Below, in pieces: positions 8,855 through 60,906 of a stretch of DNA of 64,000 nucleotides (positions are counted from its first letter, which is position 1; every line of letters begins with the position of its first letter). The notes beneath the pieces were generated by a model. The model saw only the letters and a list, made by a program, of their open reading frames with translations. It was not told where the DNA came from and searched no databases. The position numbers and the translations under genes were made by a program. Source of the DNA: Escherichia phage EJP2. The stretch lies in sequence record OQ411014.1, one strand, 5' to 3'.

Positions 8855-9352
8855 ATGGCTTTAAGATCAAAGAATTTTCTATTCAAAAGAAAGGGTAAAG
8901 ATGGCGAGTGGTATGATTTCCAAGATTCAGACTCGTGGTACGATACCAATAACGATTATCATTGGAATGAAGTTTCGTTACCACTGGCTGCTGGGGGATA
9001 CTATGGCAGTACTACAGGATTACATACAATTGCATTCACACTACGTCAATTCGTTGGTCGTATATATGTTGAAGCAACTCTGTCAAGCAACCCTGAAGAA
9101 GCGGATTGGTTCCCAATTAAGTTTACTGAATCTTGTCGGTACTATATGGAATTCACGGATACCAGAATTTACGATGAAAATCGTGACAATTTTATTGAAG
9201 AATCAGGGGCAACCGGAACATTTGCCGAAACTCTAGTTGGTAACTTCACATACCTTAGAGTCGGTATTGAACGTAATTACATTAGTATTGACCCAACCGA
9301 GTATCAGAAACGCAAAGGTGGGAAATTAGAAGAAGTTCAAATTAATTTCTAA
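8855..9352 (+). CDS. Hypothetical protein (165 aa), probable late gene
   Basis: ORF with RBS AAGAGGGG; exact TATAAATA late-type motif at 8815-8822. Confidence 0.55.
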   Translation: MALRSKNFLFKRKGKDGEWYDFQDSDSWYDTNNDYHWNEVSLPLAAGGYYGSTTGLHTIAFTLRQFVGRIYVEATLSSNPEEADWFPIKFTESCRYYMEFTDTRIYDENRDNFIEESGATGTFAETLVGNFTYLRVGIERNYISIDPTEYQKRKGGKLEEVQINF

Positions 9353-9363
9353 GGAAAAATAAA

Positions 9364-9972
9364 ATGGAAAACAAAATCGAACAACCAAGATTGTTTGTTA
9401 AAGGTCATGTGCTGATTACTGATGTTACTGACCCAGAAAACACAAAAGTAGTTTTGGATAAATCAAACGCAATCCATCCAGAAAACATGAGTCGTGCTAT
9501 TGCAAACGCTCTGGCAGCAAACGTAGATAGTGCTGGAGTAAGTTTAGGGGCTGTTTCTGAAATGCGTTTTGGTAATGGTGGTACTGTAGTGTTGAGTACT
9601 GGGCGTGTTACCTATAAATCCCCACGCGTCACTTCGTATGGTGGTTTGTATTCTGAAACTTATTCTAAAAAGATTAACCCACGTATTAATACTGGTGTTG
9701 ATGAACAATATAATAACATCACGACCGTTCACATTCCCGGACAGGCATATACTGACTTGGTATGCTTATGTACATTAGGTTTAAGTGAGCCGTCAGACCA
9801 AGCTGTTAGTTCCAGTACTTCAATGGATGGAACTTATGTATTTGATGAACTCGGTCTATATACTGACGGTACTAGTGGTTTACCACTATCACATATTATT
9901 TTCCATCCAGTTGAGAAAAGTGCAAACCGTATTCTACAAGTAAAATATACTGTGCGTGTTCAACTTCAATAA
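9364..9972 (+). CDS. Hypothetical protein (202 aa)
   Basis: ORF with AAGGAAAA RBS, tightly packed after the previous gene. Confidence 0.55.
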   Translation: MENKIEQPRLFVKGHVLITDVTDPENTKVVLDKSNAIHPENMSRAIANALAANVDSAGVSLGAVSEMRFGNGGTVVLSTGRVTYKSPRVTSYGGLYSETYSKKINPRINTGVDEQYNNITTVHIPGQAYTDLVCLCTLGLSEPSDQAVSSSTSMDGTYVFDELGLYTDGTSGLPLSHIIFHPVEKSANRILQVKYTVRVQLQ

Positions 9973-9981
9973 GGATAAGAT

Positions 9982-11079
9982 ATGATTAACTATGAAATTA
10001 AACGTGCCAATGGTAAAATATATGCATCAATCCCCAATAACGCAATATTGGGTCCGAACTCACCAAACCAAAACCCAGTACCGATCAACTTGGTCGGTCG
10101 TAATAAGGTAGGTTATGGTCAAGCATACAATGAAAACGCATTGTGGTTAGCAGAAAACTTTGCTGGTCAATATGCACCAAAGGGTAACGTAACAGGCCAA
10201 CTATGGTATAAGTATACATCTGGTACAGGGGAATTACTAGTAGCTCTTAAAGATGATGCTGCTCAACCAGTAGATTCACAAACCGAATTAGAATGGGGTG
10301 CTATCCCTGCTATTACAGTGTTTAATACTGTCCCTGATGGTACTAACTCAATTATGGGGCGTATGGTACTAACAAATAATGGCGACCGTCTGATGGTTCT
10401 CATGAAGGATAAAGAGTGGCGTGAAATTCAAACTACTCGTCCTTCTAACAAACAGTATGAACGTCTACTAGATATTAACTATGACACAGGTGAGAAATTC
10501 ATTTCTTATACACAAACTAACAGTACTAAACCAGTTGCATACTTTAACGTTGGTGGTGCTCCTATTGTTGATTCGAACGGTTATACTACCTTCCAAGATG
10601 GCGATGGTGTATTCAACTTCGGTGCGAACTATTTCTTTGAAATGAATATTATCGCCCGTCAAGTCACTAATACTGGCACTACTGTAGTTCCCCAACCTGC
10701 AAACTATAAGACTTGGCAGATTAAAGGTCAGTTTTATGTTGATAACGCTGGTAATTTCACACCTGGCGTTACTGTGGCTTCGGCTCTACCAGATCCACGT
10801 AAGGTTGCTAACCTAACACAGATTAAAGATGAAATCACTAGTACTCAAGGTACATGGGATGTTAACGTAGTAATCAACGGGGTTGATACATCAGTCCCTG
10901 GTGCAAACGGAAATACTGGGGCTGATTATGAAAACTACGTCCTAGGTTCACTAAACTCTACAAAACACTTAGGTATTCGTATTGACGGTACTGTTTCTGG
11001 TCTTGGTGCTGGTCAATCTACTCTAACACAGTGGAGTGTACTACTAAAAATCACGGGTGTTCCTCCGGTTGGTGTTTAA
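9982..11079 (+). CDS. Hypothetical structural protein (365 aa)
   Basis: ORF with AAGGA RBS; contains a fibre-like GQLWYKYTSGTGEL motif; followed by a hairpin terminator. Confidence 0.55.
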   Translation: MINYEIKRANGKIYASIPNNAILGPNSPNQNPVPINLVGRNKVGYGQAYNENALWLAENFAGQYAPKGNVTGQLWYKYTSGTGELLVALKDDAAQPVDSQTELEWGAIPAITVFNTVPDGTNSIMGRMVLTNNGDRLMVLMKDKEWREIQTTRPSNKQYERLLDINYDTGEKFISYTQTNSTKPVAYFNVGGAPIVDSNGYTTFQDGDGVFNFGANYFFEMNIIARQVTNTGTTVVPQPANYKTWQIKGQFYVDNAGNFTPGVTVASALPDPRKVANLTQIKDEITSTQGTWDVNVVINGVDTSVPGANGNTGADYENYVLGSLNSTKHLGIRIDGTVSGLGAGQSTLTQWSVLLKITGVPPVGV

Positions 11080-12938: not shown

Positions 12939-14435
12939 TTATTTCTTATGAACACGGTAAACAATGTTCGGTTTAACTGCATCTTCCAACGGTACTCTGT
13001 TTGGACTATTAACAAAATCAGTTTTAGCTTTATCTGCACCAACCCACGGCTGACGACCGCCATAATCAAATATAGCCCATGATTTCTTATCGTCTGAGTA
13101 CTCCCAAAGCGTAACTGGGGTGTAATCAGTACGGTAAAAGTACTCACCATCAACTGGATTGCTTGGGAATTCAGTACCTTCACCTACAGTTCCTCTAGCT
13201 GGTGGAATCTTAGGTCTAGAGTCCGCAGAAAGAGTGATGTCGGCAGCAATACTACCTGAAGTGAATGGTACGTTGCTATGTTCATCAGGTGGAATCACCC
13301 ATGTAACACCATCATCCAGTACTTGATATAATTGTGGTTCAGCGTATAATACATAGAAGTCACCAGCGTCATTAGGTACACTTTCACCGGACTTAACGTA
13401 CGGTAAATCACAGTTCAACCATTTCTTGACATCTTTATCGTACTGATATAAAGTATATCCACTGACATCTGCTTCTTGCTCTTTAAAAAAGAAATCTCCG
13501 TCACTCGGTCTGCGAGGGAATGTGGTTCCGTACTTAACTTGGACTTCATCCCAGCTAGAATTCTCGAACTCCATCAGTACTGGATATGTTTTCTTAATGT
13601 AGAACATATTTGCTGAAGGTTTTTCAGGGAAATCATATCCACTTAAGATAACTCTTGACAGTTCCCATATATCTGATCTATCATTATATATGTGCTCATT
13701 AGTCCAGTGCATGTATGGCACTTCATCATCGGCTTGGATAATGATTTTGTTCATAATATCCATTTCGTTGTTGTAGTTACTGTTTTCACTACCACCATTA
13801 TTACCACTTGAGTTACCATTTCCGTTATTCGGATCATCTGGGTCATCTGGGAAGTTGTTATTGTCTAGGATTCCAGAATATTCAGGACTATCGGTTAGTG
13901 GTTTAACACGAAGTTTGAAAATATGGTGTTGCCATGTGACGGAGTAACCTTCGGATGTTCTAAACGCATCTTGAACGACATAGAAACGGTTCAAACCTGA
14001 ATCTTTTCCTATAACGTCAAAATCGCGTAAGTTAGGAAGTTCGATGACATCGCCTGGAATAATTTTTCTTCCCACGCGTTGCATCATTGTGTTATAATGG
14101 ATTGTAATGTCCATAGTGTTAAAGTTGAAGAAAATCCCTGGCATTTTTAAGTCAGGAGTTGCTTCTTGAATTTGGTACACTGCACTAAGTGTTATAGCTT
14201 CTAAGTTATATTCACGTTGTGCTGATTCACCGAAGATAATGTCACCGATACTAGAAATATCTAGTTGACCATCTCCGGTTTGTAGTGTACCATCATCATT
14301 AGTTGCTAATTGTTTTGGACCAACATAAGCGTACAGCCACATATCAACACCACCGATATTGTACTGTTCGGCAATGTTGCGGTCGATGAAACTATAATCA
14401 TTAGTTCGACCTTTTTTCCACATTTTGTATGCCAT
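12939..14435 (-). CDS. Hypothetical baseplate/virion protein (~499 aa)
   Basis: ORF track gives 12939..14492; the start is placed at the internal ATG (MAYKMWKK) because it has a GGAGA RBS and a late-type motif ~32 bp upstream (14467-14474). Confidence 0.5.
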   Translation of the reverse strand: MAYKMWKKGRTNDYSFIDRNIAEQYNIGGVDMWLYAYVGPKQLATNDDGTLQTGDGQLDISSIGDIIFGESAQREYNLEAITLSAVYQIQEATPDLKMPGIFFNFNTMDITIHYNTMMQRVGRKIIPGDVIELPNLRDFDVIGKDSGLNRFYVVQDAFRTSEGYSVTWQHHIFKLRVKPLTDSPEYSGILDNNNFPDDPDDPNNGNGNSSGNNGGSENSNYNNEMDIMNKIIIQADDEVPYMHWTNEHIYNDRSDIWELSRVILSGYDFPEKPSANMFYIKKTYPVLMEFENSSWDEVQVKYGTTFPRRPSDGDFFFKEQEADVSGYTLYQYDKDVKKWLNCDLPYVKSGESVPNDAGDFYVLYAEPQLYQVLDDGVTWVIPPDEHSNVPFTSGSIAADITLSADSRPKIPPARGTVGEGTEFPSNPVDGEYFYRTDYTPVTLWEYSDDKKSWAIFDYGGRQPWVGADKAKTDFVNSPNRVPLEDAVKPNIVYRVHKK

Positions 14436-14466
14436 TTTGAATCTCCAAAAAGAAATCGTATAAATG

Positions 14467-14474
14467 TATTTATT
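14467..14474 (-). promoter_or_regulatory. Late-promoter-like motif AATAAATA on minus strand (499-aa gene)
   Basis: Plus-strand TATTTATT, ~32 bp upstream of start 14435; back-to-back with the promoter at 14478. Confidence 0.35.
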
Positions 14475-14477
14475 TTT

Positions 14478-14507
14478 TTGAGACAAATGCAAAAGATGTG
14501 ATATAAT
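14478..14507 (+). promoter_or_regulatory. Sigma70-type early/middle promoter (TTGAGA-N18-TGATATAAT) for the ClpA-like gene
   Basis: -35-like TTGAGA 14478-14483, extended -10 TGATATAAT 14499-14507; one of five copies of a conserved cassette. Confidence 0.7.
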
Positions 14508-14554
14508 AGATTATGAAGCACATAAAACTACTTTTTTTTTAGGAGAGAATTATA

Positions 14555-16840
14555 ATGAGTCAAACTTTCATTCAAATCTTCACCGATACTGAAAACTTTG
14601 CACAGAGTCTTGGTCATCGTTATATGTCTATCGACCATCTTTCAGTAACCGTGCTACAAATTCCTAGCATCATTGAAGCGTTGAATGCAATGTCTCTCGA
14701 TGCGGAACAAATCCAAGAACGTGTTCACCAGTACTTGAAAAGTGCTAACATTCCAGAGATTCCACAGAGTACGATGGAAGCTATTGGTGAAGATCGTGCG
14801 GCTATGAGCATTCAAATGTCTCGTATCATGGCTGAACTAAGCAAGAAAGCTGTACTGGAACAATTGAAGACTGATGATTATACTATTGCTCCGTACTTTG
14901 TACTTTTTGAATGTTTGTCCTTCCCTAATACTGCAATTGAAGCAGTACTGGAAGAATTAGGAACAACTCGTACTGAAGTGGCTCGTTCTCTTCAGAAACA
15001 TGTTGAACAAGTTGAACCATCAGTAGAACTAACTAAAACTTTCCAAGAACCGACTAAAGAGGGTAAACGAGTGGCACAACAACCACAGTCCAAGTCTAAG
15101 GGTATTGAAGATTACACCACTAACCTGACAGAAAAAGCTCGTAATGGCAATCTTGACCCGATGATTGGTCGTACCAAGGAACTCCAGAACCTAATCGAGA
15201 TTGTTTCTCGTAAGAATAAAAAGAATGCGTGTCTGACTGGTGAACCTGGTGTTGGTAAAACTCAAATCATTGATGGTTTGGCTCAAGCAATCGCTGATGG
15301 GAATGTTCCAGAGCATTTACAAGGTATTGAGATTCTTTCTCTGAACATGGGTGCGTTTACTGCGGGTACTAAGTATCGTGGTGAGTTCGAAGAACGTGTT
15401 GATGATTTCTTGAAAGAATTGAAAACTCGTGATAACGTAATCGTATTCATTGACGAACTACATACTATCATGGGTGCAGGTTCCAACAGTTCTGGTTCTA
15501 TGGATATGAGTAATCTTATCAAACCAGCACTATCAAGTGGTGAAATCCGTGTTATCGGTGCAACTACTTACGAAGAATATCGTAAACACATTGAGAAAGA
15601 TGGTGCACTAGCACGTCGCTTCATGAAAGTTGATATTGTTGAACCTTCTTTCAGTGAAACTCGTGAAATTGTACTCGGCGTTACCAGTACTTATGAGAAG
15701 TTCCATGAAGTTTCTTTCAGTGAAGCAGCAATTGAAGCAGTACTGAACCTGTCTAACAAGTTCATGAAAAACAAGCGTTTCCCTGACAAAGCACTAGATC
15801 TTCTTGATGCAGCAGCGGCAATGAAACGTACTCGTGGTGAAGACGATAATATCGTTCAAGAATCACACATCCAAGAAGTTGTGGCACGCATTGCTAACCT
15901 GGATATTTCTGTGGTAGCATGTAACGAAAGCGAACGCATGTCTAACCTACCAAATGCACTACGTTCTCGTGTATTCGGTCAAGATGATGCAGTTGAAAAA
16001 CTGGTTGATAACGTAATGGTTGCTCGTGCAGGTCTACGTGATAGTGCGTCAGTACAGGGTGCGTTCATTTTCCAAGGGCCGTCCGGTACTGGTAAAACTG
16101 AAATCGCTAAAGCACTTGCTGATGCAATGGGTTCTGAACTAATTCGTTTCGATATGTCAGAGTTTGCTCAAGAGCATACTGTATCCAAACTAATCGGTTC
16201 CCCTCCAGGTTATGTTGGTCACGAATCCGGCAACGGTCTACTGTTAGACAAAGTAGAACAATTCCCGAACTGTGTCCTGCTTCTGGATGAAATTGAAAAG
16301 GCTCACCCTAACATTCTACTAACCTTTCTACAGGTTCTAGATGAAGGTCGTCTAACTGGCTCTCAAGGTAAAACAGTATTCTTCAATAACGTAACTGTTA
16401 TCATGACTACTAACCTAGGTGCTAAACAAGCAGAAGTTCGTGCAATCGGTGGTTCCGGTGGCGACGATGGTATGGACAAAGCACTAAAAGCGTTCCTCCG
16501 TCCAGAGTTTCTAAACCGTATCGACAGTGTTGTGAAATTCAAAGAACTATCTGCTGAGGCAATTGATTCTGTAATCACCAAGTTCATGGCTTCTCTGGAA
16601 GAAACCGTTGCACCTAAAGGTGTTACCGTGAAACTAACTACCGAAGCACGTGCATGGTTGGCTAAGAATGGTGTTCAGGTTGGTATGGGTGCACGTCCAA
16701 TGAAACGTACCATCGAAAAACACATTCGTGTCCCACTAGCTAAAGAAATGCTTTGTGGTTCTCTACAAAATGGTGGTTCAATTACGTTTGACGTGATTGA
16801 TGGAACTCTAGGTGTAAAATCCAAACGTTCTAAAAAATAA
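14555..16840 (+). CDS. ClpA-like class-I AAA+ unfoldase (761 aa)
   Basis: Clp N-domain; NBD1 Walker A GEPGVGKTQI and Walker B VIVFIDELH; NBD2 Walker A GPSGTGKTEIAKALA, Walker B VLLLDEIEKAHPNI, LIGSPPGYVGH, sensor-2 GARPMKRTIE; no ClpB-type middle domain; own sigma70-type promoter and terminator. Confidence 0.9.
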   Translation: MSQTFIQIFTDTENFAQSLGHRYMSIDHLSVTVLQIPSIIEALNAMSLDAEQIQERVHQYLKSANIPEIPQSTMEAIGEDRAAMSIQMSRIMAELSKKAVLEQLKTDDYTIAPYFVLFECLSFPNTAIEAVLEELGTTRTEVARSLQKHVEQVEPSVELTKTFQEPTKEGKRVAQQPQSKSKGIEDYTTNLTEKARNGNLDPMIGRTKELQNLIEIVSRKNKKNACLTGEPGVGKTQIIDGLAQAIADGNVPEHLQGIEILSLNMGAFTAGTKYRGEFEERVDDFLKELKTRDNVIVFIDELHTIMGAGSNSSGSMDMSNLIKPALSSGEIRVIGATTYEEYRKHIEKDGALARRFMKVDIVEPSFSETREIVLGVTSTYEKFHEVSFSEAAIEAVLNLSNKFMKNKRFPDKALDLLDAAAAMKRTRGEDDNIVQESHIQEVVARIANLDISVVACNESERMSNLPNALRSRVFGQDDAVEKLVDNVMVARAGLRDSASVQGAFIFQGPSGTGKTEIAKALADAMGSELIRFDMSEFAQEHTVSKLIGSPPGYVGHESGNGLLLDKVEQFPNCVLLLDEIEKAHPNILLTFLQVLDEGRLTGSQGKTVFFNNVTVIMTTNLGAKQAEVRAIGGSGGDDGMDKALKAFLRPEFLNRIDSVVKFKELSAEAIDSVITKFMASLEETVAPKGVTVKLTTEARAWLAKNGVQVGMGARPMKRTIEKHIRVPLAKEMLCGSLQNGGSITFDVIDGTLGVKSKRSKK

Positions 16841-16846: not shown

Positions 16847-16875
16847 AAAAAGGAGCCTTTCGGCTCCTTTTTTTT
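16847..16875. terminator. Bidirectional hairpin terminator after the ClpA-like gene
   Basis: AAAAAGGAGCC-TTTC-GGCTCCTTTTTTTT; also terminates the convergent 3337-aa gene. Confidence 0.75.
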
Positions 16876-19800
16876 ATTTGATTAATCCAATAAGAATTAC
16901 AGGTGCAATATCCAAACTATCAGAATAAGTACTCAATGGGATTGGTTCATAACCATCACCGTATACTGCAATTTCATTAGTGTTACCTAAATTCAATCCA
17001 GTACTGGTATACGTTACATCCTTTTCGTAATAATTCTGAACAGTACCGTTATAAGCTCGAACAACGAAGTTGTTTTTGCGAACAAGCATTTGTTCTGCAT
17101 TAGATAGGATAATATCGTCAGGTACAACACCAGGCATTGTAGCGATACCATTTTCATAGGTCATGGTGCTTGCCATCTTCGGCTGACTTACGTGAGTGAA
17201 GCTGTCAAACATTGACTTATAAACAACAGTAACAGTACTGTTAGTGTTAATATACACACCATCAACTAGTGGTTTACTATAGATCCAAGAACCATTGTTA
17301 GCAGTAGGGTTAATTTCAGCTACATCGTATTCAAATACTGAAATTTCCAACGCGTCGGTCATTTTAGTACGAACCAATTCACTTAGTACACCTTTACCGT
17401 ACACTGGTAGGTAATATCCATTATCAACCACAGTTCCATCTTCTAGTGTTTGTGTCTCATTAGTACTGTACCATACATCATAGTCATTGGTAGTTAGTTC
17501 TGGTTCATAATTACCACCAATTAAGGAAGTGTCATAGAACACATCATAATCTAGAGCATCGACTCTGTAAGAACGGTTATTAGTATAACGAGTAATTCCA
17601 CCAGCACTAAACTCTGGGTCATTGAAAGATGTAACTCTAACAATGTTGATACTAGTTGGTTTGTTCTGGTTGTAAAGTGATTCATCAGTACTGTTATAAG
17701 TACTAGTGAAAGTTAATCCACCAATAGTTACAGTATTACCAGATACCGAAGTTACTTTAAACAACTTAGGACGATTAGCATCTTTAATTGTTGCTACACT
17801 CAATACAGTTTTCCAAGAACCATCGTTAATAGCGACTGCGTAATCTGAATTGTCTGGGACAAATACAGCTACCGTTTCGCCAACAACGAAATCATTATCA
17901 CCGTCAAGTTCAACAACACCACTTACTGAAGTTACGTTCTTAATACGATATGAATATTGAATTTCATTCTTTTCCAAAATGCTTCTATTCATGTATTCAA
18001 GAGCAACATCATAACGTGGAATACTTACAAGGGCTTCTGAGCGATTATATGGGTTTTGTACGATATAACCTTCAATATTAAAGTTACCTTGATCACGTAA
18101 TTGTGTCTGTACTGAAGTATCAAATCCATATCCATCAACTGTGAATCTTAGCTGTGCCATATCACGTTTAGATGGGTTAAGTTCTGAAATGTCTACAAAT
18201 ACAGGATCGTTAGTACTGTTAGCGACACCAACAACGGAGTTAATAATAGTTTTAGTTTGTGATTCTAGAGCTAAGTTATCGAATGCGTTTTTATCATCAA
18301 AGAATACTTCTTTATTCAAGCCTGACATGATTTGTAAGAAATCACTATATAGTGGGTTCTTATCATCTTCTGGAACGTCATCAAGTGATGGTTGGCTTAG
18401 GCGAACCATATCCCCATCAGTGATATACACTTCTTCCATATATTCTTCTATGCCAACATTCGAAGGAATGCTATAATCTTTTCCTGGAGTAGTTTCACTC
18501 ATTAGGAAAACATATTTCCTAGGCATCAACACTACTGCATAAGCATCAACATCAAGATTCTCTAATACTTTCTCTGCTGCACTATACGGGTCAGTTTCAT
18601 CAGGATTATAAGTCCCTCTAAGTGCTGATAGAACGTGTACTGCATCAGTATAGAAACGATTAGATTCTGGATTATCATCAGTTTCAGGGATTACATATTT
18701 CCATGTATATAAACCGTATTCATATTCCATGTACTCTAGAATCTCAATGTGAGAGAATCCAGGGTTTGCTTCCTTAACTTGATCATAAATCAAATCATAC
18801 ATTGGTTTGCTGTAAGAGATATAACCATAGTTTTCACCATTGCTTGCACTAAATCCAAACGGCAACCTTGTGCTTGGGTTATCACTCAGTACTAGACCTT
18901 TAAATGGACAACCTACTTCAGAACCAATAGTTTCATCAGATTTGGAAGTTGTTAGCTTCAAACGGTTTGAAAGCGTGTTGTACTGAACATAGTTGCGTAC
19001 TTCACTAACCGATTCAGATTTCTCTTCTGCTTCTGCAATTACACGATTAAGTGTAGCTGTAAATTCATCAGATGCTTCAACATCATTAATTAGTGTTGCA
19101 TACATTTGGTCTAAACCATATTTCAAACCACTACTAATATTCATGTTCGGATAGTACTGCGTAATACCGTTCATGATTAATGTTTCCAACTCAGCATTAT
19201 TAATTTCAGGGAAAGTATATGCATAACGCTGGAGCATGTAGTGGGAGCCTTTTACAAGGAAGTCACCAGTATTAGATTGGTATTTCTTGTTCACGTTTTC
19301 TAGTGTTGTTATATCTGCCATATCGGAAGATGGTTTGCACTGGAAGTTGTCAAAGTCAAGAATAACATCAATCTCTTGGAAACGGCGGTTTGGTAGTACG
19401 AAGTTATTTGGTAGTGAGCCTACGATTTCCCACTTCTGACTTACATCGTTGAATTGAGCATATTCGTAATCCCAAATATCTTTTTGTGTTTTAACCCAAG
19501 CACCATCAACATAGATATAACCGTTAGGATCTAAATCGTTTAATAGACCGTTGATTTCATCTTCATCAGATGTCTTCTGCTCTATTTGTGAACGGATTTT
19601 AGTTCTGTATGGTTTCACTTCTTCAAAGTACTGTACGATTTCATTTATTAAATTACCATCAGTAGTTGATCTTTGTTGTAGTGATTGGTCTAGACCAATA
19701 ATATAAATGTAAGAGGTTTTGAATACCCAGTCCACGACTTTCTGCTCAGTGTGTACGTACTTAACCATGTCAAATACTACAGTACTTTGTACAGAGTTGA

Positions 19801-22800
19801 ATGAACCTTTGAGTAGTGCTAATGCTGCACGAACGTTTTTCTCATTATTCGTTAATGCACCATCGCTGTTGTATTGTGAGTAGTTGTTATAAAGAACATT
19901 GTTCAATTGTACAGTGCTCTTCTCACGACCAACTGCTACCCATTGAACTTGACCACGTGATTCAGTTTTTTCATATAATGTCCAGACACCATCGGCATCG
20001 GTAATACGAATCAAATCACCAATCTGGTAGTTTTTAGTGTTAGCAATTTGAATGCTTGTTTCTTCGGTATATTCTGATTCTTCATCAAAACCAACACTAT
20101 ACCAATCAGCATAATCCCAGTAGGTTGTCATATCTAATGAAGTACCAAGCTGATCAATATAGTCAGTTTGCTTAATCATAGTATGTTGACCTTCACCACG
20201 ACTCTCTAGAGTGATAGTTACCGCAGTACCAGAAGTACTTGGGCTATTCATCAAGTGAATGTAACCGTTGTCGTCGTAATGCACAAAGTACACACTAGTA
20301 CGGTTTAGTGGTGCTGGTAATGTACCATTAGTATTAACCAGTACTGCGTCATTCTCTACAAATTTGTTTTCATTTGTGGTGATAACCAATTCGTTGTTAT
20401 AAGTTAGTACTTTAAATCCAACTTCGTTCGGGTTCACAGCGTCAGTCTTCTTAAAGAAGATATCATCCATTACTACAGTGTCAGTTGTCATGTTAATATG
20501 CTTGTACACATTGTTTGCTGAATCAACAAACGTCCTACGAGCTTCTATAACGTCCATAAACCATGTTTTGTTTGCACCTAGACCCAAGTCAGTACTTGGA
20601 TAAGATAACTCAACCACGTTGCCGTTTAGGAGGGTTTCTTGAGACTCCAAAGAGTTCCATAGAGAATTCCAAATAGCTGGGTTGAAGTTGTATTCTTCAC
20701 CTTCTTTACAAAGTTGATACTGTTCATGTTTAATAACATCATCATTATTTTCTTTGTAAGAAACAGTCAATATACTCTTATCATCGTTAATGTCGTGCTG
20801 CATATTAGATAGAATAAAAGAATTCTCATCTACTGGGGAGAACCAAGGAACTCCGAGTACTGAAGGATCAGCAATAATGCGAGCAATCTCATTACAAGAT
20901 TTGGTACGATGCTTAACATGTGGAGTATAGATTGTATCTTTAACCCAGAAGTAATACATTGGCACATAAGTGTTAGTACTAGCATCATATTCAACAAAAT
21001 AAGAATAGTTTTCAGTAACTGCTGTACCGGATGGTAGGTAAGTGGTCTGGCCTTTATTTTGTTTTTGTTGTTCAGTGCAATACTGATCCCAGTTATATGG
21101 TTCTACTGGCGATTTAACCCATTCGTACACATCAATACTACCATGTGGAAGGATTTTACCCCAATTATAACGCTTATATTCTAGAGTCTTATTTACATCG
21201 ACGTTCCCATTAGCATCAAGGATTGGACGAGTATAATCCATGAAGAATGCAGAAGAAGTATCCCACCAAACTTCACCAACTTTATCAGAACCCCAAGCTA
21301 GTAATGTTTCACCATCACTATTGTAGGTTGCTGGGTCACGAGTAGAGGTATATGAAACGTTTGACATTGCCACACCAGGGATAATACCATTGATTGGGTC
21401 ATATGTGTTAATATACATCTCAACAACGTTAGTCATGGAGTTGTAGGTACTTGGGCGGTCGAACAACGAACTGTTAGGTGCTAAGTACTCATATTTTTTC
21501 TGAACGTATGCATCTTTCGCTGCTTTAGTACTGAAACGTGGAACGTATTTGTACATTACAGGTTCTGCACCACTGAAATCAAAATCTACAGTACTGTCGA
21601 ATGCAACAACTATAGTATTTGCAGTAACACCATAGAATTGTGTTTCTTCACGTAGGAAATCAGGCATATAACCGGACTCATCAACGAAGAAGTAAGTATC
21701 ACCATTACTTAGTGTAGATGAAGAACTTAATTCTAGTGTTACTTTCTGTGCTGCGTATTGGTCATCAGTAATAATTGGAGTAATTTTCTTCAAAGTGATA
21801 TTGGTTTTAACAATATCATAGATATTCCAGTTATCATTAGAATCCTGAAGAACCCATACAGACGATGGTAGTGTATTGTAATCGGAAGTATACTTAGAAC
21901 GGTCTTCATAAGCAGTTTGTAGGTCTAGAGTAGTGAATGACACTTCATCTAGAGTTACAGGGCCGATATTTGGCAACTGAATGTTGTCAGATGCACCTTT
22001 ACGCATTGGGAAAGAGAACAAACCATGTGGACGAGTAATCCAACGTGGGTCTACACCTGTTTTACCAAAATAAACGATGTTATTTGCAGTACTGTCCACA
22101 GTTGCATTCTGGTCGAATGTAACCAATTGTGGTTGTTGAGCAAATTCGTTGTTAATTAGTTGGAACTGTAGGTTCTTTTTGCCATATACGTTGCCATATT
22201 CACCGATTTTGAAAGCCCACTCTTGTAGTGCTTTGTAACCTTCGGTATTATAGGTTTTTGATACACGTAGAACACGTTCGAGTACTTGATTAGTACCTTT
22301 GTCACGGATGAAGCCTTTATAGAAATCAACGCGGGCTGGTTCTGATGTGATCATTTCGTTTAAGTAACTTCTGGACTGGTATCCAATTAAATGATTCGCT
22401 AGGGAACGCAATTGAACATCAGATACTGGATTTTCAGTGTCATAATAGTGTCTAAAGTCATCTACTAGTTTTTCAAAGTCAGGTAGTGTGCCAGTTTCGA
22501 GGATAATAAAGCCAGGTGCTTCCAAACGACCATTCCATGAGCCAGTTACATAACCGTACATACGAATCAATTCTTGAATTGAACCATAAGTTGGAATATA
22601 GATGTTATCACCAAAAATAGTTTTATCATCAAACACGATAGCATGTTCATAAGCGATTAAGCTCAAACGAATAAGAGCAATACGCTTGTTGTATTCTTCT
22701 AAACTACGAACAGTGATGATGTTACCGATACGTGCAGTTTCAATTTCATACGGACGAATACCTGTATTATTATCATCTAGTAGAGTCCATAGACCACCAC

Positions 22801-25800
22801 TATATTGTGCAACTGATTCAACAGAACCAAAAGACGCACCGAATTTAACACTTTTAGTACTTGGAGAACAAGAAATATATTCACCACGAGCTAGAGCAGT
22901 CTGACTCCAGTTCAAATAATCCTTCGCAATTTGATTCCAGTTTAGAGTGTTGCCGTTCTCGTCAGTTTCTTCGAAAATAAACCCAACACGTTCCAAATAT
23001 TCACCATAAGCACACAAGAAAGTGTAAACTTCTTGGAAAGAATTCAGTACTGTACCGTATTCAATACTTTGAACTTTATCAGTGTACTCATTGTAATGAA
23101 CTACTGTACGATTACCTTCACGAATAGTAACACGCTTACCATTACGGTTAGGAGTTAAGTATTTGAAGGATGCACCAACTAGATCATAACCAGTAATCTG
23201 ATATCCAGTGCCGTTCCATGTGATATCAACAGCACTCATTGATTCTTCACGGATGGAAGAGCTACGAACTAGACCGATATGTTGGTTTTCTTGAGAAATT
23301 AGACCGAATGTATCAGAATAAAAACTCAATTGGTCTTCTTTACTGAATCCACCAAGTTTATGACCCACATTAATATGTGAACTACGTAAAACGTCACCGT
23401 ACTTAGTAGTAATATCCATTTGTTTGTACTGTAGGTGATCAGTTATGAACATTTGGTATCCTAGGATACGGCTATTGTTCTCATTGTTCACTAGTGTAGT
23501 ACTGTTTAGGTTCAAACGTTGGTTGGTTTCACCAAATAGGAACTGTTCTTTACCACGATAAACTGTTTTAAGAGTACTACCACGAGTATCATAGAAATAG
23601 TTTGCAAACTGTGCTGGTTTAGCACGATATAGTAGTAGAGCTTCATCATATGGGAACATTGCAGTGTTGCGGTAAGTGAATTCAATATCACCCATGTCAC
23701 CATAAGACCACGGTTCTGCACGATGATCAAGGGAACCAGCCACTAAACCTAGAACTTCTGGAGCAATCAGTTCAAATGTGCGAATTTCTTCACCATCTGC
23801 TGTGAAATTACCAGTACCTTTAATAACGAATGGCTGTTTACCAAAACGTTTGTATTTTGCATAAGTTCCTTTGTTCTTACCATATAGAATTGTACCAGTA
23901 CTAGCGTCACCTTTAATACTACCAACATCCCATAGACCACTTGGTACTAATTGGTTGTTTTCATCAATAACTTCAGCTTCATACACGTATACAACTTCAG
24001 TTGGGTCTTCACCAATACGAATTTTGGTTGGTTCATATTCTTGGTTCCACCAAGATGGGCGTTGAGCAAAACCTAACATTTCCCACGGGTGGGTTGCTGG
24101 GCGATATGTACCGAACATGTCACTATAAATTGCTCTCCATGAGCCACGTGCTGGAATATCGGTAACAACGCCATCAACAACATAAGTTGTTCCTTTGTAG
24201 TTCCAAGTTAACCAGTTATTTGCATCATAATCATGTGTACTGTTATCAATACCGTTAGTTGCGATGAAGTTAGTGTAACCACGTAGTAGAAGTGTTTGCT
24301 TCTCGTCACGAGTATAGTCAGTTTCAGTAAAATAAGGAGTCGGGAATAGATCACTCTGAACAAGTTCAGGTACATAATCAATATCTTTGAAATCATTATC
24401 AATACTGTTGAAAATACGGTTTTCTAGTTCGTAAATCACATCATCCATACGACCTACACCATTCAGTACTTTATACGCCTTGGTAATTGTACCAGTATGG
24501 CTTACGTTATAACAACCTAGGTCACGACCAGCATACATATAAGTCGCTTTCTGTGGAGCGTACGCTTTTAGAATACCAATAAACTGTGGAGTCGGTGGAA
24601 TGAAGGCACGAATGTTAGAACTGGAACTACCCATCGCATCAATGAAGAATGGGAAAGTATTATTCTTACCAACGTTAATATTATTAAGAATTGCGTCAAC
24701 AATATTAGATGCACTGTTGGAAGTGAATGCAGATGGATCTTCATTGTACATATTAACCATTTGAGTATTGAATTTGTTCATGAAACGGAAGTATTCAGAT
24801 TGCATAAATTCAATTGCAGCAAATAGGTCAATATTTTCATTCGCTGTGTTAATCATTAGTGGAAGCATAGATGCTTCGTTCTGGATAATCTTAGTACCGA
24901 CAGAGTTATCAACTAGACCTTTAGCAAGACGTTCTTCGTAGTCGTTAAAATCATTTACTGTACCAGTAGTGATGTTACGTTGAATAATTTCTTGGAAATG
25001 TGGTGTATATAGACTTTGATCAATATAAGTGATAAAATCATTATACGGGTTGTTCTGTAGGTTGATTGGAATTTCATAAGAACCCAAGTTAGTATCTGGT
25101 GTTTGTACAGGACTGTAAGTTCTGATTTCAACAATGCTATCATCGGTTAGTTTGATAGAACTATCTAGAGTTATAGATTCAACAAGACCATTTTTATCCA
25201 ATTTAGTACTGAACTTTGTGGTTTCTTCTGTACCAACACGCACATAAAGTACATCTGTGCTTGATGATAGGTTGACACGTTGAGCTAGTTCAAATGTGTG
25301 GTTAAAAAGTTCAGATGGAACGTAGTCATTACCAGCTTCACGATGCCAGTCCATAAAAGTACTGTTATCTGCTTTGTAATATTTGAATGTTGCATCAATA
25401 TCCATTACATAAGCGTACATATTTTCAATTGGATTTTGGAAATTATTCATCTCTTGTACAGTACTGAATACATTGTACATAGAGGTTTTGGTCATAGCAG
25501 GAACTTGACGAACATACTGTTTGGTAAATTCATCGCTACGATCCCAGTCTGATTTTAGATTTACTGAACCGTCAGAACCAATTACGTTATAGTAATACAA
25601 ACCAGAAATTTCAGTAGTTGCTCCAACTTTATCATAATCATAACGAGTACTCTGAATGAAGTTCTCGAAAACATAATAGTTGTAAGAGTTCAATTCAACG
25701 TTAGTGTTATAGATTTTATTGTAGTTGTAGTCAAAGTTAACTTTAAGGCCAAATAGTGGGGAACCTTTAAAAGAACTACTTGGGTAAATTTGAGGATCGT

Positions 25801-26887
25801 TTAGTTTAGTCCCGTTGCGATCATACAATTGGAACAATGGGGTACTGTTAATACCTGATTTAACTTGTGTACGAATCCATGCTGAACCATTCCAGTACAT
25901 AGAAGTGTTTTCATAAACTTGACCAGATTTAATTAGAACAACGTCACCACGCAAAGGTTCACCCGTTGGGCGTAGCTCAGATTCTTCATCTTCATCAAGA
26001 GCAAGACCATATACACGAGTGCCAGCTTCGGTTTGTTTAATGTAAACTTTATAGATTCTGTTATTTTCACCGCTGTTACCGATACTAGTGAATAGAATAC
26101 GGTCACCAGCTTTAAGAATAAAACCATCAACACGAATTTCATCAGAAACTGATTTCTGTACAATATCTTCTGGTTTGATGGAGTCTGATAGGTACGTGAC
26201 TACACCACGGAAAGTAGTTCCGTAATTCATTAGTTCGATGTTTTTGTTATATTCAATGATTGGTGCTTGAGCATGAGTGAAGCGTTCATCTTGAGTCATG
26301 TCATCAGTTAGTACTGTGCCGTCTGGTAATTCTTGACCTACAGTAAACCAATAGTTTTGTAGTGACCATGTGTTACCGTTATCAGCACCACGTTCCATAA
26401 CGATATAATCCGGTGCAATACCAAATTCGTTATTATTGTCCCAAACATAAGAACTGTAGTTCATCATTTTATTTGGGTTGATTGGTGGAGTCCATGAATA
26501 AAACTTACCATCAAATAGGCGTGACTGGTTATCAGTTAAGGAACCATAATGGGACATATATCCTACTAGGTCTTCATAGAACTGCATAGAGCGAACGCTT
26601 GTGTCGGTATTACGAGACACATAAACTGGTGATAGTTGGTAGTCTTGGCGTTGTTGAGAACTTTCTTTGATGAAAATCTTTCCAGCCGCTGACGGAGTAC
26701 CACGGTCACCTATATACCCGTCAACAATTTCTTGTTCGGCAGGGTTGAACCATTGCTGGATTACATCATCACAAAAAGTTTGGATCTGTTCTAGACCTTG
26801 CATCCACTCAGGCAATCTTTTAATGAATAGCTTTTTTTGTACAGCATCTGCCGCTAGGGTTGGCTGGAACTTAAATTCATTCGACAT
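16874..26887 (-). CDS. Giant virion structural protein (~3337 aa), probable baseplate or tail-fibre component
   Basis: Uninterrupted ~10-kb ORF. Track start is 26908; the third ATG (MSNEF) at 26887 has a GGAGAAT RBS and an exact late motif at 26923-26930. Lies next to the gp6-like gene. Confidence 0.7.
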   Translation of the reverse strand: MSNEFKFQPTLAADAVQKKLFIKRLPEWMQGLEQIQTFCDDVIQQWFNPAEQEIVDGYIGDRGTPSAAGKIFIKESSQQRQDYQLSPVYVSRNTDTSVRSMQFYEDLVGYMSHYGSLTDNQSRLFDGKFYSWTPPINPNKMMNYSSYVWDNNNEFGIAPDYIVMERGADNGNTWSLQNYWFTVGQELPDGTVLTDDMTQDERFTHAQAPIIEYNKNIELMNYGTTFRGVVTYLSDSIKPEDIVQKSVSDEIRVDGFILKAGDRILFTSIGNSGENNRIYKVYIKQTEAGTRVYGLALDEDEESELRPTGEPLRGDVVLIKSGQVYENTSMYWNGSAWIRTQVKSGINSTPLFQLYDRNGTKLNDPQIYPSSSFKGSPLFGLKVNFDYNYNKIYNTNVELNSYNYYVFENFIQSTRYDYDKVGATTEISGLYYYNVIGSDGSVNLKSDWDRSDEFTKQYVRQVPAMTKTSMYNVFSTVQEMNNFQNPIENMYAYVMDIDATFKYYKADNSTFMDWHREAGNDYVPSELFNHTFELAQRVNLSSSTDVLYVRVGTEETTKFSTKLDKNGLVESITLDSSIKLTDDSIVEIRTYSPVQTPDTNLGSYEIPINLQNNPYNDFITYIDQSLYTPHFQEIIQRNITTGTVNDFNDYEERLAKGLVDNSVGTKIIQNEASMLPLMINTANENIDLFAAIEFMQSEYFRFMNKFNTQMVNMYNEDPSAFTSNSASNIVDAILNNINVGKNNTFPFFIDAMGSSSSNIRAFIPPTPQFIGILKAYAPQKATYMYAGRDLGCYNVSHTGTITKAYKVLNGVGRMDDVIYELENRIFNSIDNDFKDIDYVPELVQSDLFPTPYFTETDYTRDEKQTLLLRGYTNFIATNGIDNSTHDYDANNWLTWNYKGTTYVVDGVVTDIPARGSWRAIYSDMFGTYRPATHPWEMLGFAQRPSWWNQEYEPTKIRIGEDPTEVVYVYEAEVIDENNQLVPSGLWDVGSIKGDASTGTILYGKNKGTYAKYKRFGKQPFVIKGTGNFTADGEEIRTFELIAPEVLGLVAGSLDHRAEPWSYGDMGDIEFTYRNTAMFPYDEALLLYRAKPAQFANYFYDTRGSTLKTVYRGKEQFLFGETNQRLNLNSTTLVNNENNSRILGYQMFITDHLQYKQMDITTKYGDVLRSSHINVGHKLGGFSKEDQLSFYSDTFGLISQENQHIGLVRSSSIREESMSAVDITWNGTGYQITGYDLVGASFKYLTPNRNGKRVTIREGNRTVVHYNEYTDKVQSIEYGTVLNSFQEVYTFLCAYGEYLERVGFIFEETDENGNTLNWNQIAKDYLNWSQTALARGEYISCSPSTKSVKFGASFGSVESVAQYSGGLWTLLDDNNTGIRPYEIETARIGNIITVRSLEEYNKRIALIRLSLIAYEHAIVFDDKTIFGDNIYIPTYGSIQELIRMYGYVTGSWNGRLEAPGFIILETGTLPDFEKLVDDFRHYYDTENPVSDVQLRSLANHLIGYQSRSYLNEMITSEPARVDFYKGFIRDKGTNQVLERVLRVSKTYNTEGYKALQEWAFKIGEYGNVYGKKNLQFQLINNEFAQQPQLVTFDQNATVDSTANNIVYFGKTGVDPRWITRPHGLFSFPMRKGASDNIQLPNIGPVTLDEVSFTTLDLQTAYEDRSKYTSDYNTLPSSVWVLQDSNDNWNIYDIVKTNITLKKITPIITDDQYAAQKVTLELSSSSTLSNGDTYFFVDESGYMPDFLREETQFYGVTANTIVVAFDSTVDFDFSGAEPVMYKYVPRFSTKAAKDAYVQKKYEYLAPNSSLFDRPSTYNSMTNVVEMYINTYDPINGIIPGVAMSNVSYTSTRDPATYNSDGETLLAWGSDKVGEVWWDTSSAFFMDYTRPILDANGNVDVNKTLEYKRYNWGKILPHGSIDVYEWVKSPVEPYNWDQYCTEQQKQNKGQTTYLPSGTAVTENYSYFVEYDASTNTYVPMYYFWVKDTIYTPHVKHRTKSCNEIARIIADPSVLGVPWFSPVDENSFILSNMQHDINDDKSILTVSYKENNDDVIKHEQYQLCKEGEEYNFNPAIWNSLWNSLESQETLLNGNVVELSYPSTDLGLGANKTWFMDVIEARRTFVDSANNVYKHINMTTDTVVMDDIFFKKTDAVNPNEVGFKVLTYNNELVITTNENKFVENDAVLVNTNGTLPAPLNRTSVYFVHYDDNGYIHLMNSPSTSGTAVTITLESRGEGQHTMIKQTDYIDQLGTSLDMTTYWDYADWYSVGFDEESEYTEETSIQIANTKNYQIGDLIRITDADGVWTLYEKTESRGQVQWVAVGREKSTVQLNNVLYNNYSQYNSDGALTNNEKNVRAALALLKGSFNSVQSTVVFDMVKYVHTEQKVVDWVFKTSYIYIIGLDQSLQQRSTTDGNLINEIVQYFEEVKPYRTKIRSQIEQKTSDEDEINGLLNDLDPNGYIYVDGAWVKTQKDIWDYEYAQFNDVSQKWEIVGSLPNNFVLPNRRFQEIDVILDFDNFQCKPSSDMADITTLENVNKKYQSNTGDFLVKGSHYMLQRYAYTFPEINNAELETLIMNGITQYYPNMNISSGLKYGLDQMYATLINDVEASDEFTATLNRVIAEAEEKSESVSEVRNYVQYNTLSNRLKLTTSKSDETIGSEVGCPFKGLVLSDNPSTRLPFGFSASNGENYGYISYSKPMYDLIYDQVKEANPGFSHIEILEYMEYEYGLYTWKYVIPETDDNPESNRFYTDAVHVLSALRGTYNPDETDPYSAAEKVLENLDVDAYAVVLMPRKYVFLMSETTPGKDYSIPSNVGIEEYMEEVYITDGDMVRLSQPSLDDVPEDDKNPLYSDFLQIMSGLNKEVFFDDKNAFDNLALESQTKTIINSVVGVANSTNDPVFVDISELNPSKRDMAQLRFTVDGYGFDTSVQTQLRDQGNFNIEGYIVQNPYNRSEALVSIPRYDVALEYMNRSILEKNEIQYSYRIKNVTSVSGVVELDGDNDFVVGETVAVFVPDNSDYAVAINDGSWKTVLSVATIKDANRPKLFKVTSVSGNTVTIGGLTFTSTYNSTDESLYNQNKPTSINIVRVTSFNDPEFSAGGITRYTNNRSYRVDALDYDVFYDTSLIGGNYEPELTTNDYDVWYSTNETQTLEDGTVVDNGYYLPVYGKGVLSELVRTKMTDALEISVFEYDVAEINPTANNGSWIYSKPLVDGVYINTNSTVTVVYKSMFDSFTHVSQPKMASTMTYENGIATMPGVVPDDIILSNAEQMLVRKNNFVVRAYNGTVQNYYEKDVTYTSTGLNLGNTNEIAVYGDGYEPIPLSTYSDSLDIAPVILIGLIK

Positions 26888-26922
26888 TTTATTCTCCATA
26901 AAATTCATTTCTTCATTTGTTT

Positions 26923-37585: not shown

Positions 37586-37615
37586 TTGAGACAACCAGAA
37601 AAAATGTGATATAAT
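37586..37615 (+). promoter_or_regulatory. Sigma70-type early/middle promoter for the gp55/gp47/gp46 operon
   Basis: TTGAGA 37586-37591, TGATATAAT 37607-37615; same architecture as 14478-14507. Confidence 0.7.
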
Positions 37616-37668
37616 AGAGTGGTAGGACACGGATAGTCCTCTGAGATGTAAAACATGGAGACAATATA

Positions 37669-42470: not shown

Positions 42471-42500
42471 ATGAGATGCAAACATAAAATGTGATATAAT
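42471..42500 (+). promoter_or_regulatory. Sigma70-type promoter firing rightward into the ORF-free locus
   Basis: ATGAGA 42471-42476, TGATATAAT 42492-42500; no ORF with RBS downstream for ~700 bp. Confidence 0.65.
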
Positions 42501-43040
42501 ATAAGTACAAGTTCATAAGGTCAGTTTTTACTGATACAGATTAAACCCAATTCACTCGAAAATGTAGAGGATGGATGAGTAGACTTATGACTACGTAGTG
42601 CAAAAGAAACCCGTTAGGAGATGGCATAGTTTGTACCACCCACGGCAATGTGGCACTTTAAATGAACGCGATAAGCAGACAGACGTTCACTAGATAGACA
42701 TATAAGGCTACCTTACCACACTTGCTAAGGGAGTTCAGTTCAGAACTTGTTTTGAGCTTGAACAGCATTAAGATTCGATTGTATGGATTTTAATGTATGC
42801 GTACTAAGACTACGACCGTTGCACATGACCGTGATAGAGAGAAACAGAGCAACCCGCTTTCGTTCTGACTTGTTCAGAAATTCACGATACAATAATTCCG
42901 ATGCTATCAGCGTCAAGCAATATTTCAGATCCTTAATTGGGTCTTTTTTATTGTCTTCATTCCCCTGCGGGGGGATGAAATTGCCTCAACAAATCTCGTC
43001 AAGTATTAAAGTATTAATTAGTTCTTAATAATTAAATTAT

Positions 43041-51371: not shown

Positions 51372-51399
51372 TTATTTTATAAAGCTAATCTTTTTCAGT

Positions 51400-51407
51400 G
51401 ATAAATA
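51400..51407 (+). promoter_or_regulatory. Late-promoter-like motif GATAAATA (major capsid gene)
   Basis: 7/8 match to TATAAATA, 48 bp upstream of ATG 51455; shares downstream ACATACTGAAA with the 48597 motif. Confidence 0.4.
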
Positions 51408-51454
51408 ATAACATACTGAAAAGCGAAATAAACCATCTTTTAAGGAGATATAAA

Positions 51455-56869: not shown

Positions 56870-56899
56870 ATGAGACAAATCGAAAACGTCTGATATAAT
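56870..56899 (+). promoter_or_regulatory. Sigma70-type promoter upstream of the 99-aa gene and DNA polymerase
   Basis: ATGAGA 56870-56875, TGATATAAT 56891-56899; followed by a 7-bp inverted repeat (GTCATCT...AGATGAC) around 56903-56927. Confidence 0.65.
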
Positions 56900-56956
56900 A
56901 GAGTCATCTGACATGGTGTTAGATGACTTTTCTAAAATCCAAATGGAGAAAACATA

Positions 56957-60854: not shown

Positions 60855-60906
60855 AGATACGTAAATTGATGATGTTACCATAAACAAATATTTTGGAGAT
60901 ATAATA

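Follow-up and report, generated by a model that had tools for sequence, protein, structure and literature searches.

In a 64,000-nucleotide stretch of the genome of Escherichia phage EJP2 (OQ411014.1; this whole stretch is hereafter called the window), the gene at positions 14555–16840 on the plus strand encodes a ClpA-like double-ring AAA+ unfoldase (761 aa plus stop, ATG start; phrog_4871 match, 1e-288). Its docking loop carries the tripeptide IGG where Escherichia coli ClpA has IGL, and related phages encode both a ClpP homologue (ClpP1) with a remodelled docking pocket and a ClpS-like protein. We give about even chances to the reading that the ClpA-like protein is the motor of a phage-owned ClpA–ClpP1–ClpS-like protease, whose docking interface has diverged on both sides and which is made before the late phase of infection. 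The components are observed, as are their co-inheritance, catalytic integrity and divergence, and from these observations we infer physical pairing and insulation from host partners. The ClpA-like gene of Rak2-like phages has already been mentioned in the literature (PMC5259590, PMC6102473, PMC7824862) and is annotated there as ClpA-like or as “ATP-dependent protease” in genome records, in which the other Clp genes are annotated as well. In the literature open to search, we found no discussion of changes in the docking loop or the ClpP pocket of these phages.

The best match of the ClpA-like protein in the PDB is E. coli ClpA (1KSF, E = 1e-171), with which it is collinear (phage residues 18–745 to ClpA 19–733). 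ClpA is also the top NCBIfam family, matched in a single stretch over residues 2–745 (TIGR02639), and the curated equivalog cut-offs for ClpA are not reached (749.6 vs 993.15 bits for TIGR02639, 622.2 vs 1350 for PRK11034). Pfam matches comprise AAA (D1), AAA_lid_9, AAA_2 (D2) and ClpB_D2-small. The D1 AAA+ module (aa 186–465; 15110–15949, plus strand) is 48.8% identical to D1 of E. coli ClpA, and the D2 AAA+ module with its small domain (aa 470–750; 15962–16804, plus strand) is 46.1% identical to D2 (E. coli reference sequences were checked against NC_000913.3). In both rings, Walker A and B, pore-1 loops, sensor-1, arginine fingers and sensor-2 match E. coli ClpA nearly residue for residue. 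In D1 these are Walker A GEPGVGKT, pore loop KYRG, Walker B FIDELH, sensor-1 IGATT and arginine fingers ALARRF, and in D2 Walker A GPSGTGKT, pore loop GYVG, Walker B LLLDEIEKA, sensor-1 MTTN, arginine finger PEFLNRID and sensor-2 GARPMKR. The N-terminal part is a divergent Clp N-domain (aa 1–155; 14555–15019, plus strand) followed by a disordered linker (aa 156–185), as assigned by the Clp_N match and the structural model. Within the first 182 residues one weak Clp_N repeat exceeded the threshold (23.6 bits vs a cut-off of 20.7), the N-domain is only 20% identical to that of E. coli ClpA, and PF02861 is precomputed for many orthologues. In the AlphaFold2 model (predicted local distance difference test, pLDDT, 79) the N-domain is helical with a pLDDT of about 60–89, the linker at residues 160–180 falls below 50, and the D1–D2 body superposes on the ClpA chains of the ClpAP complex (Foldseek; 6w20_E, template modelling (TM) score 0.87, 45% identity).

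Models of ClpB and ClpV align with the phage protein only as two pieces, with the middle-domain region missing, and the protein has 761 aa compared with about 857 for ClpB. Since the ClpB models match in two stretches, and the ClpA models and 1KSF in one, the protein has no ClpB-type middle domain (M-domain). Judged by its sequence, the gene product is a ClpA-type hexameric unfoldase with all catalytic motifs, and not a ClpB-type disaggregase.

The equivalent of the ClpP-docking helix-loop-helix was located by alignment at the base of D2 (aa 620–648, NLGAKQAEVRAIGGSGGDDGMDKALKAFLR; 16412–16498, plus strand). It is present, but its tip, IGG (aa 631–633; 16445–16453, plus strand), departs from [LIV]-G-[FL]. 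The tip aligns to I617-G618-L619 of ClpA, with the phage “vraIGGsggddg” beneath the ClpA “rksIGLihqdns” in the HMMER alignment, and the register of the loop is fixed because the invariant MTTN of sensor-1 precedes it and the PEFxNR of the arginine finger follows. From anchor to anchor the phage loop measures 29 residues, three fewer than the 32 of E. coli, and the mode among 134 diverse ClpA-family representatives is 31–32. Residues 620–638 are coil in the model and 629–635 are among only four segments with a pLDDT below 50, which is the behaviour expected of a flexible docking loop. No canonical docking tripeptide was found in a loop elsewhere in the protein. Its only other [ILVM]G[FLM] is VGM at residues 709–711, which is part of the sensor-2 stretch GMGARPM, outside any loop, and was thus ruled out as an alternative docking tripeptide.

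A Gly or Ala at the third tripeptide position occurs in none of the 134 representatives (about 90% Phe/Leu), in none of 73 other ClpA homologues from viral contigs (70 IGF, 3 IGL) and in none of 13 cellular ClpAs. As it is absent from these ~220 comparators, IGG is not a chance feature. Codon 633 (16451–16453) is polymorphic, encoding Gly in the window and Ala (IGA) in the cluster representative P0001, which is 99.6% identical to the window protein and differs from it at 3 of 761 residues. In E. coli ClpXP, either ClpX F270L or ClpP R192K alone abolishes ClpX–ClpP binding, and ClpX I268L, F270L and V274A as well as changes in loop length severely weaken docking (PMC7112951).

These results bear out the original prediction, made from the letters of the DNA, in most of its statements on the protein. 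The two complete AAA+ modules with intact motifs were recovered motif by motif, the Clp N-domain was found, if weakly, and ClpA-like architecture without the ClpB middle domain agrees with the collinearity with 1KSF. The position of the loop, for which an alignment or structural check had been proposed, was confirmed by alignment, anchors and model. The suggestion that the protein may not dock in the canonical way also holds, as docking to a standard ClpP is doubtful when F270L or R192K abolishes binding in E. coli.

Among 107 sequences of the phage ClpA clade, the first tripeptide position is always I, M, L or V, the second is Gly in 89, and the third is M in 57, V in 12, L in 10, F in 6, I in 3, G in 9, A in 9 and H in 1, so that it is hydrophobic in 88. 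The clade consensus is hydrophobic-Gly-Met, and the loop is deleted in none of the sequences. Across this set the loop appears to be still under constraint. In a tree of the clade computed without the loop columns, basal lineages carry IGL, IGF or LGF and derived ones hydrophobic-Gly-Met, M-[SN]-M or I-G-[GA], and a small third residue arose at least three times. According to this tree, IGG/IGA is a derived, polymorphic state of one sublineage and no family-wide property. The third position ranks 39th in variability among 570 AAA+ positions. The AAA+ modules have a mean entropy of 0.79 bits compared with 1.47 for the N-domain, a sign that the motor is under strong purifying selection. Throughout the clade the ATPase motifs vary little or not at all, and the reading frame is intact in >100 clusters.

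This last set of results bears on the least probable explanation of the IGG tip, that of a decaying gene whose docking loop degenerates through loss of function, which we regard as very improbable: the polymorphism and variability of the third position would fit it, but the intact frames, the preserved ATPase motifs, the purifying selection on the motor and the conserved promoter, Shine-Dalgarno sequence and terminator described below speak against it.

A survey of co-occurring genes in related phages, suggested together with the original prediction, yielded ClpP1 (69 records) and a ClpS-like protein (71 records). Because the phage lineage encodes both, the “unknown partner” that had been considered for the ClpA-like protein has an obvious candidate. 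ClpP1 and ClpS-like genes occur in essentially every related complete genome, 80–95 kb from the ClpA-like gene. ClpP1 (121Q gp464, CBB_104, Hallingskeid CDS0577) is found at ≥60% identity in the same genomes as the ClpA-like gene and sits among DNA-metabolism genes, 85–95 kb away from it. It matches Pfam CLP_protease with 1e-41 to 1e-47, and its model (pLDDT 90.5) superposes on Staphylococcus aureus ClpP with a TM score of 0.95 and a root-mean-square deviation of about 1–1.8 Å. The Ser-His-Asp triad is present in 81/81 clusters and the gate residues E8, E14 and R15 hardly vary, so that ClpP1 would need an opener. By its MEROPS S14 fold, triad and gate, ClpP1 is a true ClpP.

The common automatic annotation of ClpP1 as a prohead protease was ruled out by its DNA-metabolism neighbourhood and by a separate protease of the T4 gp21 type. 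This head maturation protease is encoded in the window at 49560–50183 (plus strand; phrog_207, 7e-57), adjoining the genes for the portal (46507–48261) and the major head protein (51398–52630), and its CBB equivalent is CBB_255. As the window and CBB encode these gp21-type proteases, the label “head maturation protease” on the ClpP homologue is a mis-annotation. About 4–5 kb from ClpP1, relatives encode a second serine protease, ClpP/NfeD-like and very divergent, whose N-terminus is hydrophobic and signal-like (Hallingskeid CDS0568, L004:11747-12367; 121Q gp473 and gp475, L003:421-1029 and 1357-1953), and a 121Q gene annotated as “ClpYQ-like” had no Pfam match.

The ClpS-like protein contains a ClpS domain (Pfam 1.9e-13), detected in 71 records of the same phage group, together with a conserved domain of ~70 aa at the N-terminus and an extension at the C-terminus. 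Examples are found in Hallingskeid (L176:1489-2025), Kaldavass (L175:2282-2815) and 121Q (gp48, L177:301-846). The gene is always located beside an IF3 homologue, and in 121Q also beside a DnaJ-like gene. Most residues of the E. coli ClpS N-degron pocket (N34, D35, T38, H66) are replaced in the phage proteins; at H66, Hallingskeid and 121Q have Asn, and Kaldavass retains the His. With a ClpX probe (E ≤ 1e-6), 10 Escherichia phage records vs 33 genomes gave a match among the matches listed (40 of 273). Within this scope, ClpX was ruled out as an alternative phage-encoded partner in the Escherichia members, since too few of their records match the probe. With ClpX outside the repertoire of these members, the ClpA-like protein is the evident phage-encoded partner of ClpP1.

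The docking pocket was compared between 81 phage ClpP1 clusters and 73 other viral ClpPs, using the pocket residues given for ClpAP (L48, F49, Y62, F82, L114, L189 and R192; 10.1101/820209). At position 114, 78 of the 81 ClpP1 clusters have G or T and none has L, whereas 71 of the 73 other viral ClpPs have L. Most ClpP1 clusters carry N, S or Q at position 82, which is aromatic in 70/73 of the other proteins, and Arg is found at position 192 in 0/81 ClpP1 clusters compared with Arg or Lys in 58/73. ClpP1 also has a C-terminal extension of 18–19 residues (7/7 IMG/VR Rak2-like contigs) that is confidently folded in the model, whereas the extension has 0–7 residues in the other viral ClpPs. Y62 is largely retained. 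The canonical hydrophobic docking pocket thus appears to have been lost in ClpP1, and the site remodelled. The ClpP of Pseudomonas phage MIJ3 (PA5oct group, L190) has S114, F189 and K192 although the ClpA of this group keeps IGF, and pocket drift in phage ClpPs may be more general than the Rak2-like clade.

Loop and pocket states were then read together in 12 same-genome ClpA/ClpP1 pairs from about 8 lineages. The ClpP1 pocket is more hydrophobic in the basal IGL lineage (L82, T114), N82 or S82 accompanies G114 in the hydrophobic-Gly-Met lineages, and Tyr189 and Ser26 occur only in the IGG lineage (Hallingskeid). In the sublineage of the window, a Gly/Ala loop is present in 12/12 ClpA clusters and Tyr189 in 15/15 ClpP1 clusters. 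The most divergent ClpA of this sublineage (P0010, IGA) shares the assembly ERZ27235603 with the ClpP1 cluster P0136 (Y189, S26), which was the only match in the sample pairing of metagenomic clusters; pairing by contig name in IMG/VR gave about 4 Rak2-like contigs with both genes. A second group of ClpP1 with an aromatic residue at position 189 occupies the same place in its tree as an independent IGA lineage does in the ClpA tree. The association of Gly/Ala in the loop with Y189 and S26 in ClpP1 is suggestive of compensatory change, without amounting to proof of it.

The ClpA-like gene is preceded by a putative sigma-70-type promoter with an extended -10 element at 14479–14507 (plus strand), which consists of TGAGACA (14479–14485), 13 nucleotides and TGATATAAT (14499–14507). 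A promoter scan returned TTGAGA-18-TATAAT with 11/12 matches and a TG before the -10 element. The extended -10 TGTGaTATAAT is kept from the window to Hallingskeid and CBB, and the remaining spacer has diverged. The motif TGAGAC[AG]-N13-TGATATAATAG occurs in five intergenic copies in the window, all on the plus strand (14479–14509, 37587–37617, 42472–42502, 56871–56901 and 60826–60856), one of which precedes a gp55-like late-sigma gene (37669). TGATATAAT itself was counted 6 times in the window compared with 1.1 expected, a number reached in 0/100 shuffles. This promoter family matches the “divergent RpoD-like” middle promoter class of CBB and GAP32 (PMC5259590). Both the ClpA-like and the ClpP1 genes have sigma-70-type extended -10 promoters with the TGATATAAT core. 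A Shine-Dalgarno sequence, AGGAG (14541–14545, plus strand), was read from the sequence 9 nucleotides before the ATG and is kept in Hallingskeid and CBB.

On the minus strand of the same divergent intergenic region, and no part of the Clp gene, lies a late-type promoter core, ATAAATAC (14466–14473). It corresponds to ATAAATA, the late motif of CBB and GAP32 (PMC5259590), is kept in Hallingskeid and CBB, and faces the minus-strand structural gene. For this gene (12939–14492) the program call is too long (TTG at 14492, 517 aa): its orthologues measure 498 aa, and the ATG at 14435 is marked as its true start by a GGAGATT Shine-Dalgarno sequence. Downstream of the ClpA-like gene, a bidirectional intrinsic terminator hairpin (AAAAAGGAGCC-TTTC-GGCTCCTTTTT; 16847–16872) with 11 pairs and T tracts was found on both strands between the convergent ClpA-like gene and the gene for a 3344-aa protein. 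Hallingskeid has the identical hairpin, and that of CBB has a different loop and one more G-C pair in its stem. Because of the middle-class promoter, the late-class neighbours and the conserved bidirectional terminator, the ClpA-like gene appears to be a separately timed, pre-late unit amid late genes. We found no data on the timing of Clp-gene expression in the PA5oct omics paper, and a literature search returned no transcriptome of a Rak2-like phage.

The window belongs to the Rak2/121Q/GAP32/CBB group of jumbo phages, and the closest deposited genome is that of Erwinia phage Hallingskeid (nucleotides 76% identical over part of the region, ClpA-like gene product 79% identical). Orthologues of the ClpA-like protein with 61–79% identity include Hallingskeid CDS0428, CBB_235 (62%), RaK2_00069 (61–65% for CBB and RaK2), 121Q gp581 and a GAP32 protein, and the gene was found in 70 phage records at 60–80% identity. 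The window, Hallingskeid, CBB and several metagenomic lineages share a fixed gene order of tail-completion (minus strand), structural (minus), ClpA-like (plus), ~3,300-aa virion protein (minus) and baseplate wedge (minus) genes. Its GC content at third codon positions (GC3) of 0.30 equals that of the phage structural genes, and the phage ClpA clade is monophyletic with at most about 47% identity to any cellular ClpA. Because the position is fixed, the GC3 phage-like and the clade monophyletic and distant from cellular ClpA, the gene is not a recent moron, and recent horizontal acquisition was ruled out by synteny, GC3 and the phage-type promoter. On this evidence the ClpA-like gene is an old, vertically inherited core gene of Rak2/121Q/GAP32-type jumbo phages.

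The original prediction had described the gene as an acquired accessory gene, inside a leftward block, on the strand opposite to its neighbours and with a promoter and terminator of its own. The last point is supported by the elements at 14479–14507 and 16847–16872, which are kept in relatives. Its place in a leftward block is correct insofar as both direct neighbours are minus-strand virion genes, and does not hold for the wider region, where three rightward genes lie at 8855–11079. Its accessory, acquired nature is contradicted by the synteny in Hallingskeid, CBB and metagenomic lineages, the occurrence in ~70 genomes, the phage-like GC3 and the phage middle promoter.

The gene for the 3344-aa virion protein (16874–26908, minus strand) is convergent with the ClpA-like gene, and this pairing is kept in every lineage examined. 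Its orthologue CBB_236 was represented by 21 peptides in CBB virions. The ClpA-like protein itself was ruled out as a virion component, as CBB_235 is absent from the virion mass-spectrometry table of CBB, in which all four flanking products were detected. Farther away, an HNH-type endonuclease open reading frame (52729–53823, plus strand; phrog_681 5e-73, phrog_559 1e-30) directly follows the major head gene (51398–52630) and may represent a homing-endonuclease insertion in the head module.

Comparison with known systems places the ClpA-like protein closest to the ATPase of E. coli ClpAPS (1KSF, 6W20, 7UIV), with which it shares the N-D1-D2 architecture without M-domain, all motifs, a flexible loop at the D2 base and, in relatives' genomes, ClpP- and ClpS-type partners in the same genome. 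The differences are IGG vs IGL, the loop shorter by 3 residues, the N-domain with 20% identity and scores below the equivalog cut-off, as well as a ClpP with remodelled pocket and C-terminal extension and a ClpS-like protein with extra domains and few of the pocket residues. The ClpA-like proteins of other Rak2-like phages are orthologous and share genomic position and orientation, but most of them carry IGM, LGM, MGM, IGV or LGL (IGF in basal members), and Gly/Ala is confined to the window sublineage and at least two small lineages. Phages of the PA5oct group and Agrobacterium phage Atu_ph07 likewise encode ClpA, ClpP and ClpS in one genome. In contrast, their ClpAs keep the canonical IGF, and the ClpP pocket is canonical in Atu_ph07 and has S114 and K192, without a C-terminal extension, in the PA5oct group. 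ClpB and Hsp104 are also double-ring Hsp100 AAA+ proteins, but the phage protein lacks their M-domain and keeps a ClpA-type hydrophobic-Gly loop. ClpB has no docking tip and does not bind ClpP, and in its engineered BAP variant a grafted ClpA helix-loop-helix suffices for docking. In mycobacteria, the loops of ClpC1 and ClpX recognise only one kind of ring of ClpP1P2 and keep the [LIV]-G-F tip. This system is a precedent for partner-specific docking, but there the specificity stems from the competent pocket of one ring and not from a changed tripeptide.

Should the phage-owned protease exist, the ClpA-like hexamer would dock onto the ClpP of the phage and not onto that of the host, and both faces of the docking interface would have been rewritten. 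In the ATPase, the loop would have been kept with a hydrophobic-Gly-x tip, in which Phe/Leu drifted to Met/Val and, in the window sublineage, to Gly/Ala. On the ClpP side, L114 would have changed to Gly/Thr and F82 to a polar residue in most members, R192 would have been lost and the folded C-terminal extension of 18–19 residues added beside the pocket, with Tyr189 and Ser26 also appearing in the ClpP of the window sublineage. Insulated from host ClpA, ClpX and ClpP and produced ahead of the late phase, such a degradation machine would presumably serve to remodel proteins of the host or of the phage.

Several observations weigh against this reading. Neither ClpP nor ClpS was found within the 64-kb window, so that their presence in this phage is deduced from its relatives, and the three genes lie 80–95 kb apart and form no operon. 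The Gly-rich, G/A-polymorphic loop tip looks like relaxed constraint as much as adaptation, and the lost hydrophobic residues of the ClpP1 pocket could equally mean that nothing docks there any more. Conservative changes at the docking position are sufficient to abolish docking in E. coli (PMC7112951). The association with Tyr189 is essentially one evolutionary event: sample look-ups of ClpA clusters P0026, P0045, P0060, P0061 and P0020 (IAG) vs ClpP1 clusters P0138, P0140, P0146, P0155 and P0168 revealed no samples shared between independent IGA lineages and aromatic-189 ClpP1 lineages. Furthermore, pocket changes do not always track loop changes, because the S114/K192 ClpP of the PA5oct group pairs with an IGF loop.

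A more far-reaching version of the proposal, which we consider possible though rather doubtful, is a fully orthogonal ClpA–ClpP–ClpS machine in Rak2-type phages, with a docking code rewritten by co-evolution and a ClpS-like adaptor of new degron specificity. The loop would have moved stepwise from IGF/IGL through hydrophobic-Gly-Met to IGG/IGA, and the pocket would have acquired G114, a polar residue 82, Tyr189 and a new C-terminal beta-element and given up Arg192. The phage protease would then neither borrow host Clp partners nor be hijacked by them, and the proteome of the infected cell would be remodelled before late gene expression.

Alternatively, docking may have been lost, at least in the IGG/IGA sublineage, and the protein may work alone and independently of ClpP as an ATP-driven unfoldase or remodeller, perhaps helping to fold or assemble the huge virion proteins of the neighbouring genes or taking host complexes apart. 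We judge this unlikely, but a serious contender. It would account for a Gly/Ala found at the key docking position in 0 of ~220 comparators and for the polymorphism of that position (G633A), given that F270L-type changes already break ClpXP docking (PMC7112951). It would also fit the location between a virion structural gene and the 3344-aa virion gene, kept in every lineage examined, and the translocase or assembly role proposed by Iyer et al. However, the loop has a near-normal length, an always hydrophobic first position and mostly its Gly, whereas ClpB/Hsp104-type relatives have no such tip, and the gene is always accompanied by one for a ClpS-like adaptor and one for a ClpP whose gate and catalytic residues are intact. 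A ClpP-independent role also sits poorly with an orientation opposite to the late structural genes, a middle-class promoter and an isolating bidirectional terminator. The absence of the protein from CBB virions points the same way but is a weak argument, since a non-packaged assembly chaperone would be equally absent. If this explanation were true, the protein would be a natural ClpA turned into a stand-alone unfoldase that never gained a ClpB-type middle domain.

It is improbable that the protein is a host-directed mimic of ClpA, which would dock onto host ClpP or compete with host ClpA for ClpP, ClpS or substrates and thereby redirect or block host proteolysis. The 46–49% identity of D1 and D2 to E. 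coli ClpA is compatible with this idea, and docking to the host may have been ancestral, as basal phage members keep IGL/IGF. Against it stand the IGG tip and the shorter loop, when smaller changes abolish binding in E. coli, and the N-domain with its 20% identity to that of E. coli in a phage group that supplies its own divergent ClpS-like protein. Moreover, dependence on host ClpP would be unnecessary, since the phage brings a ClpP of its own.

Clp proteases are regarded as sharing one universal docking code, the contact between the [LIV]-G-[FL] loop and its hydrophobic pocket, which is also the target of acyldepsipeptide (ADEP)-type antibiotics. If the ClpA-like protein is indeed the motor of a phage-owned ClpA–ClpP1–ClpS-like protease, a natural lineage in which both contact sides have changed, with intermediates from IGL/IGF to IGG, would show how this code can be rewritten. 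It would also supply ready-made orthogonal unfoldase–peptidase pairs for synthetic biology, and it would give a handle on why very large phages carry their own pre-late regulated proteolysis and on what is degraded by it.

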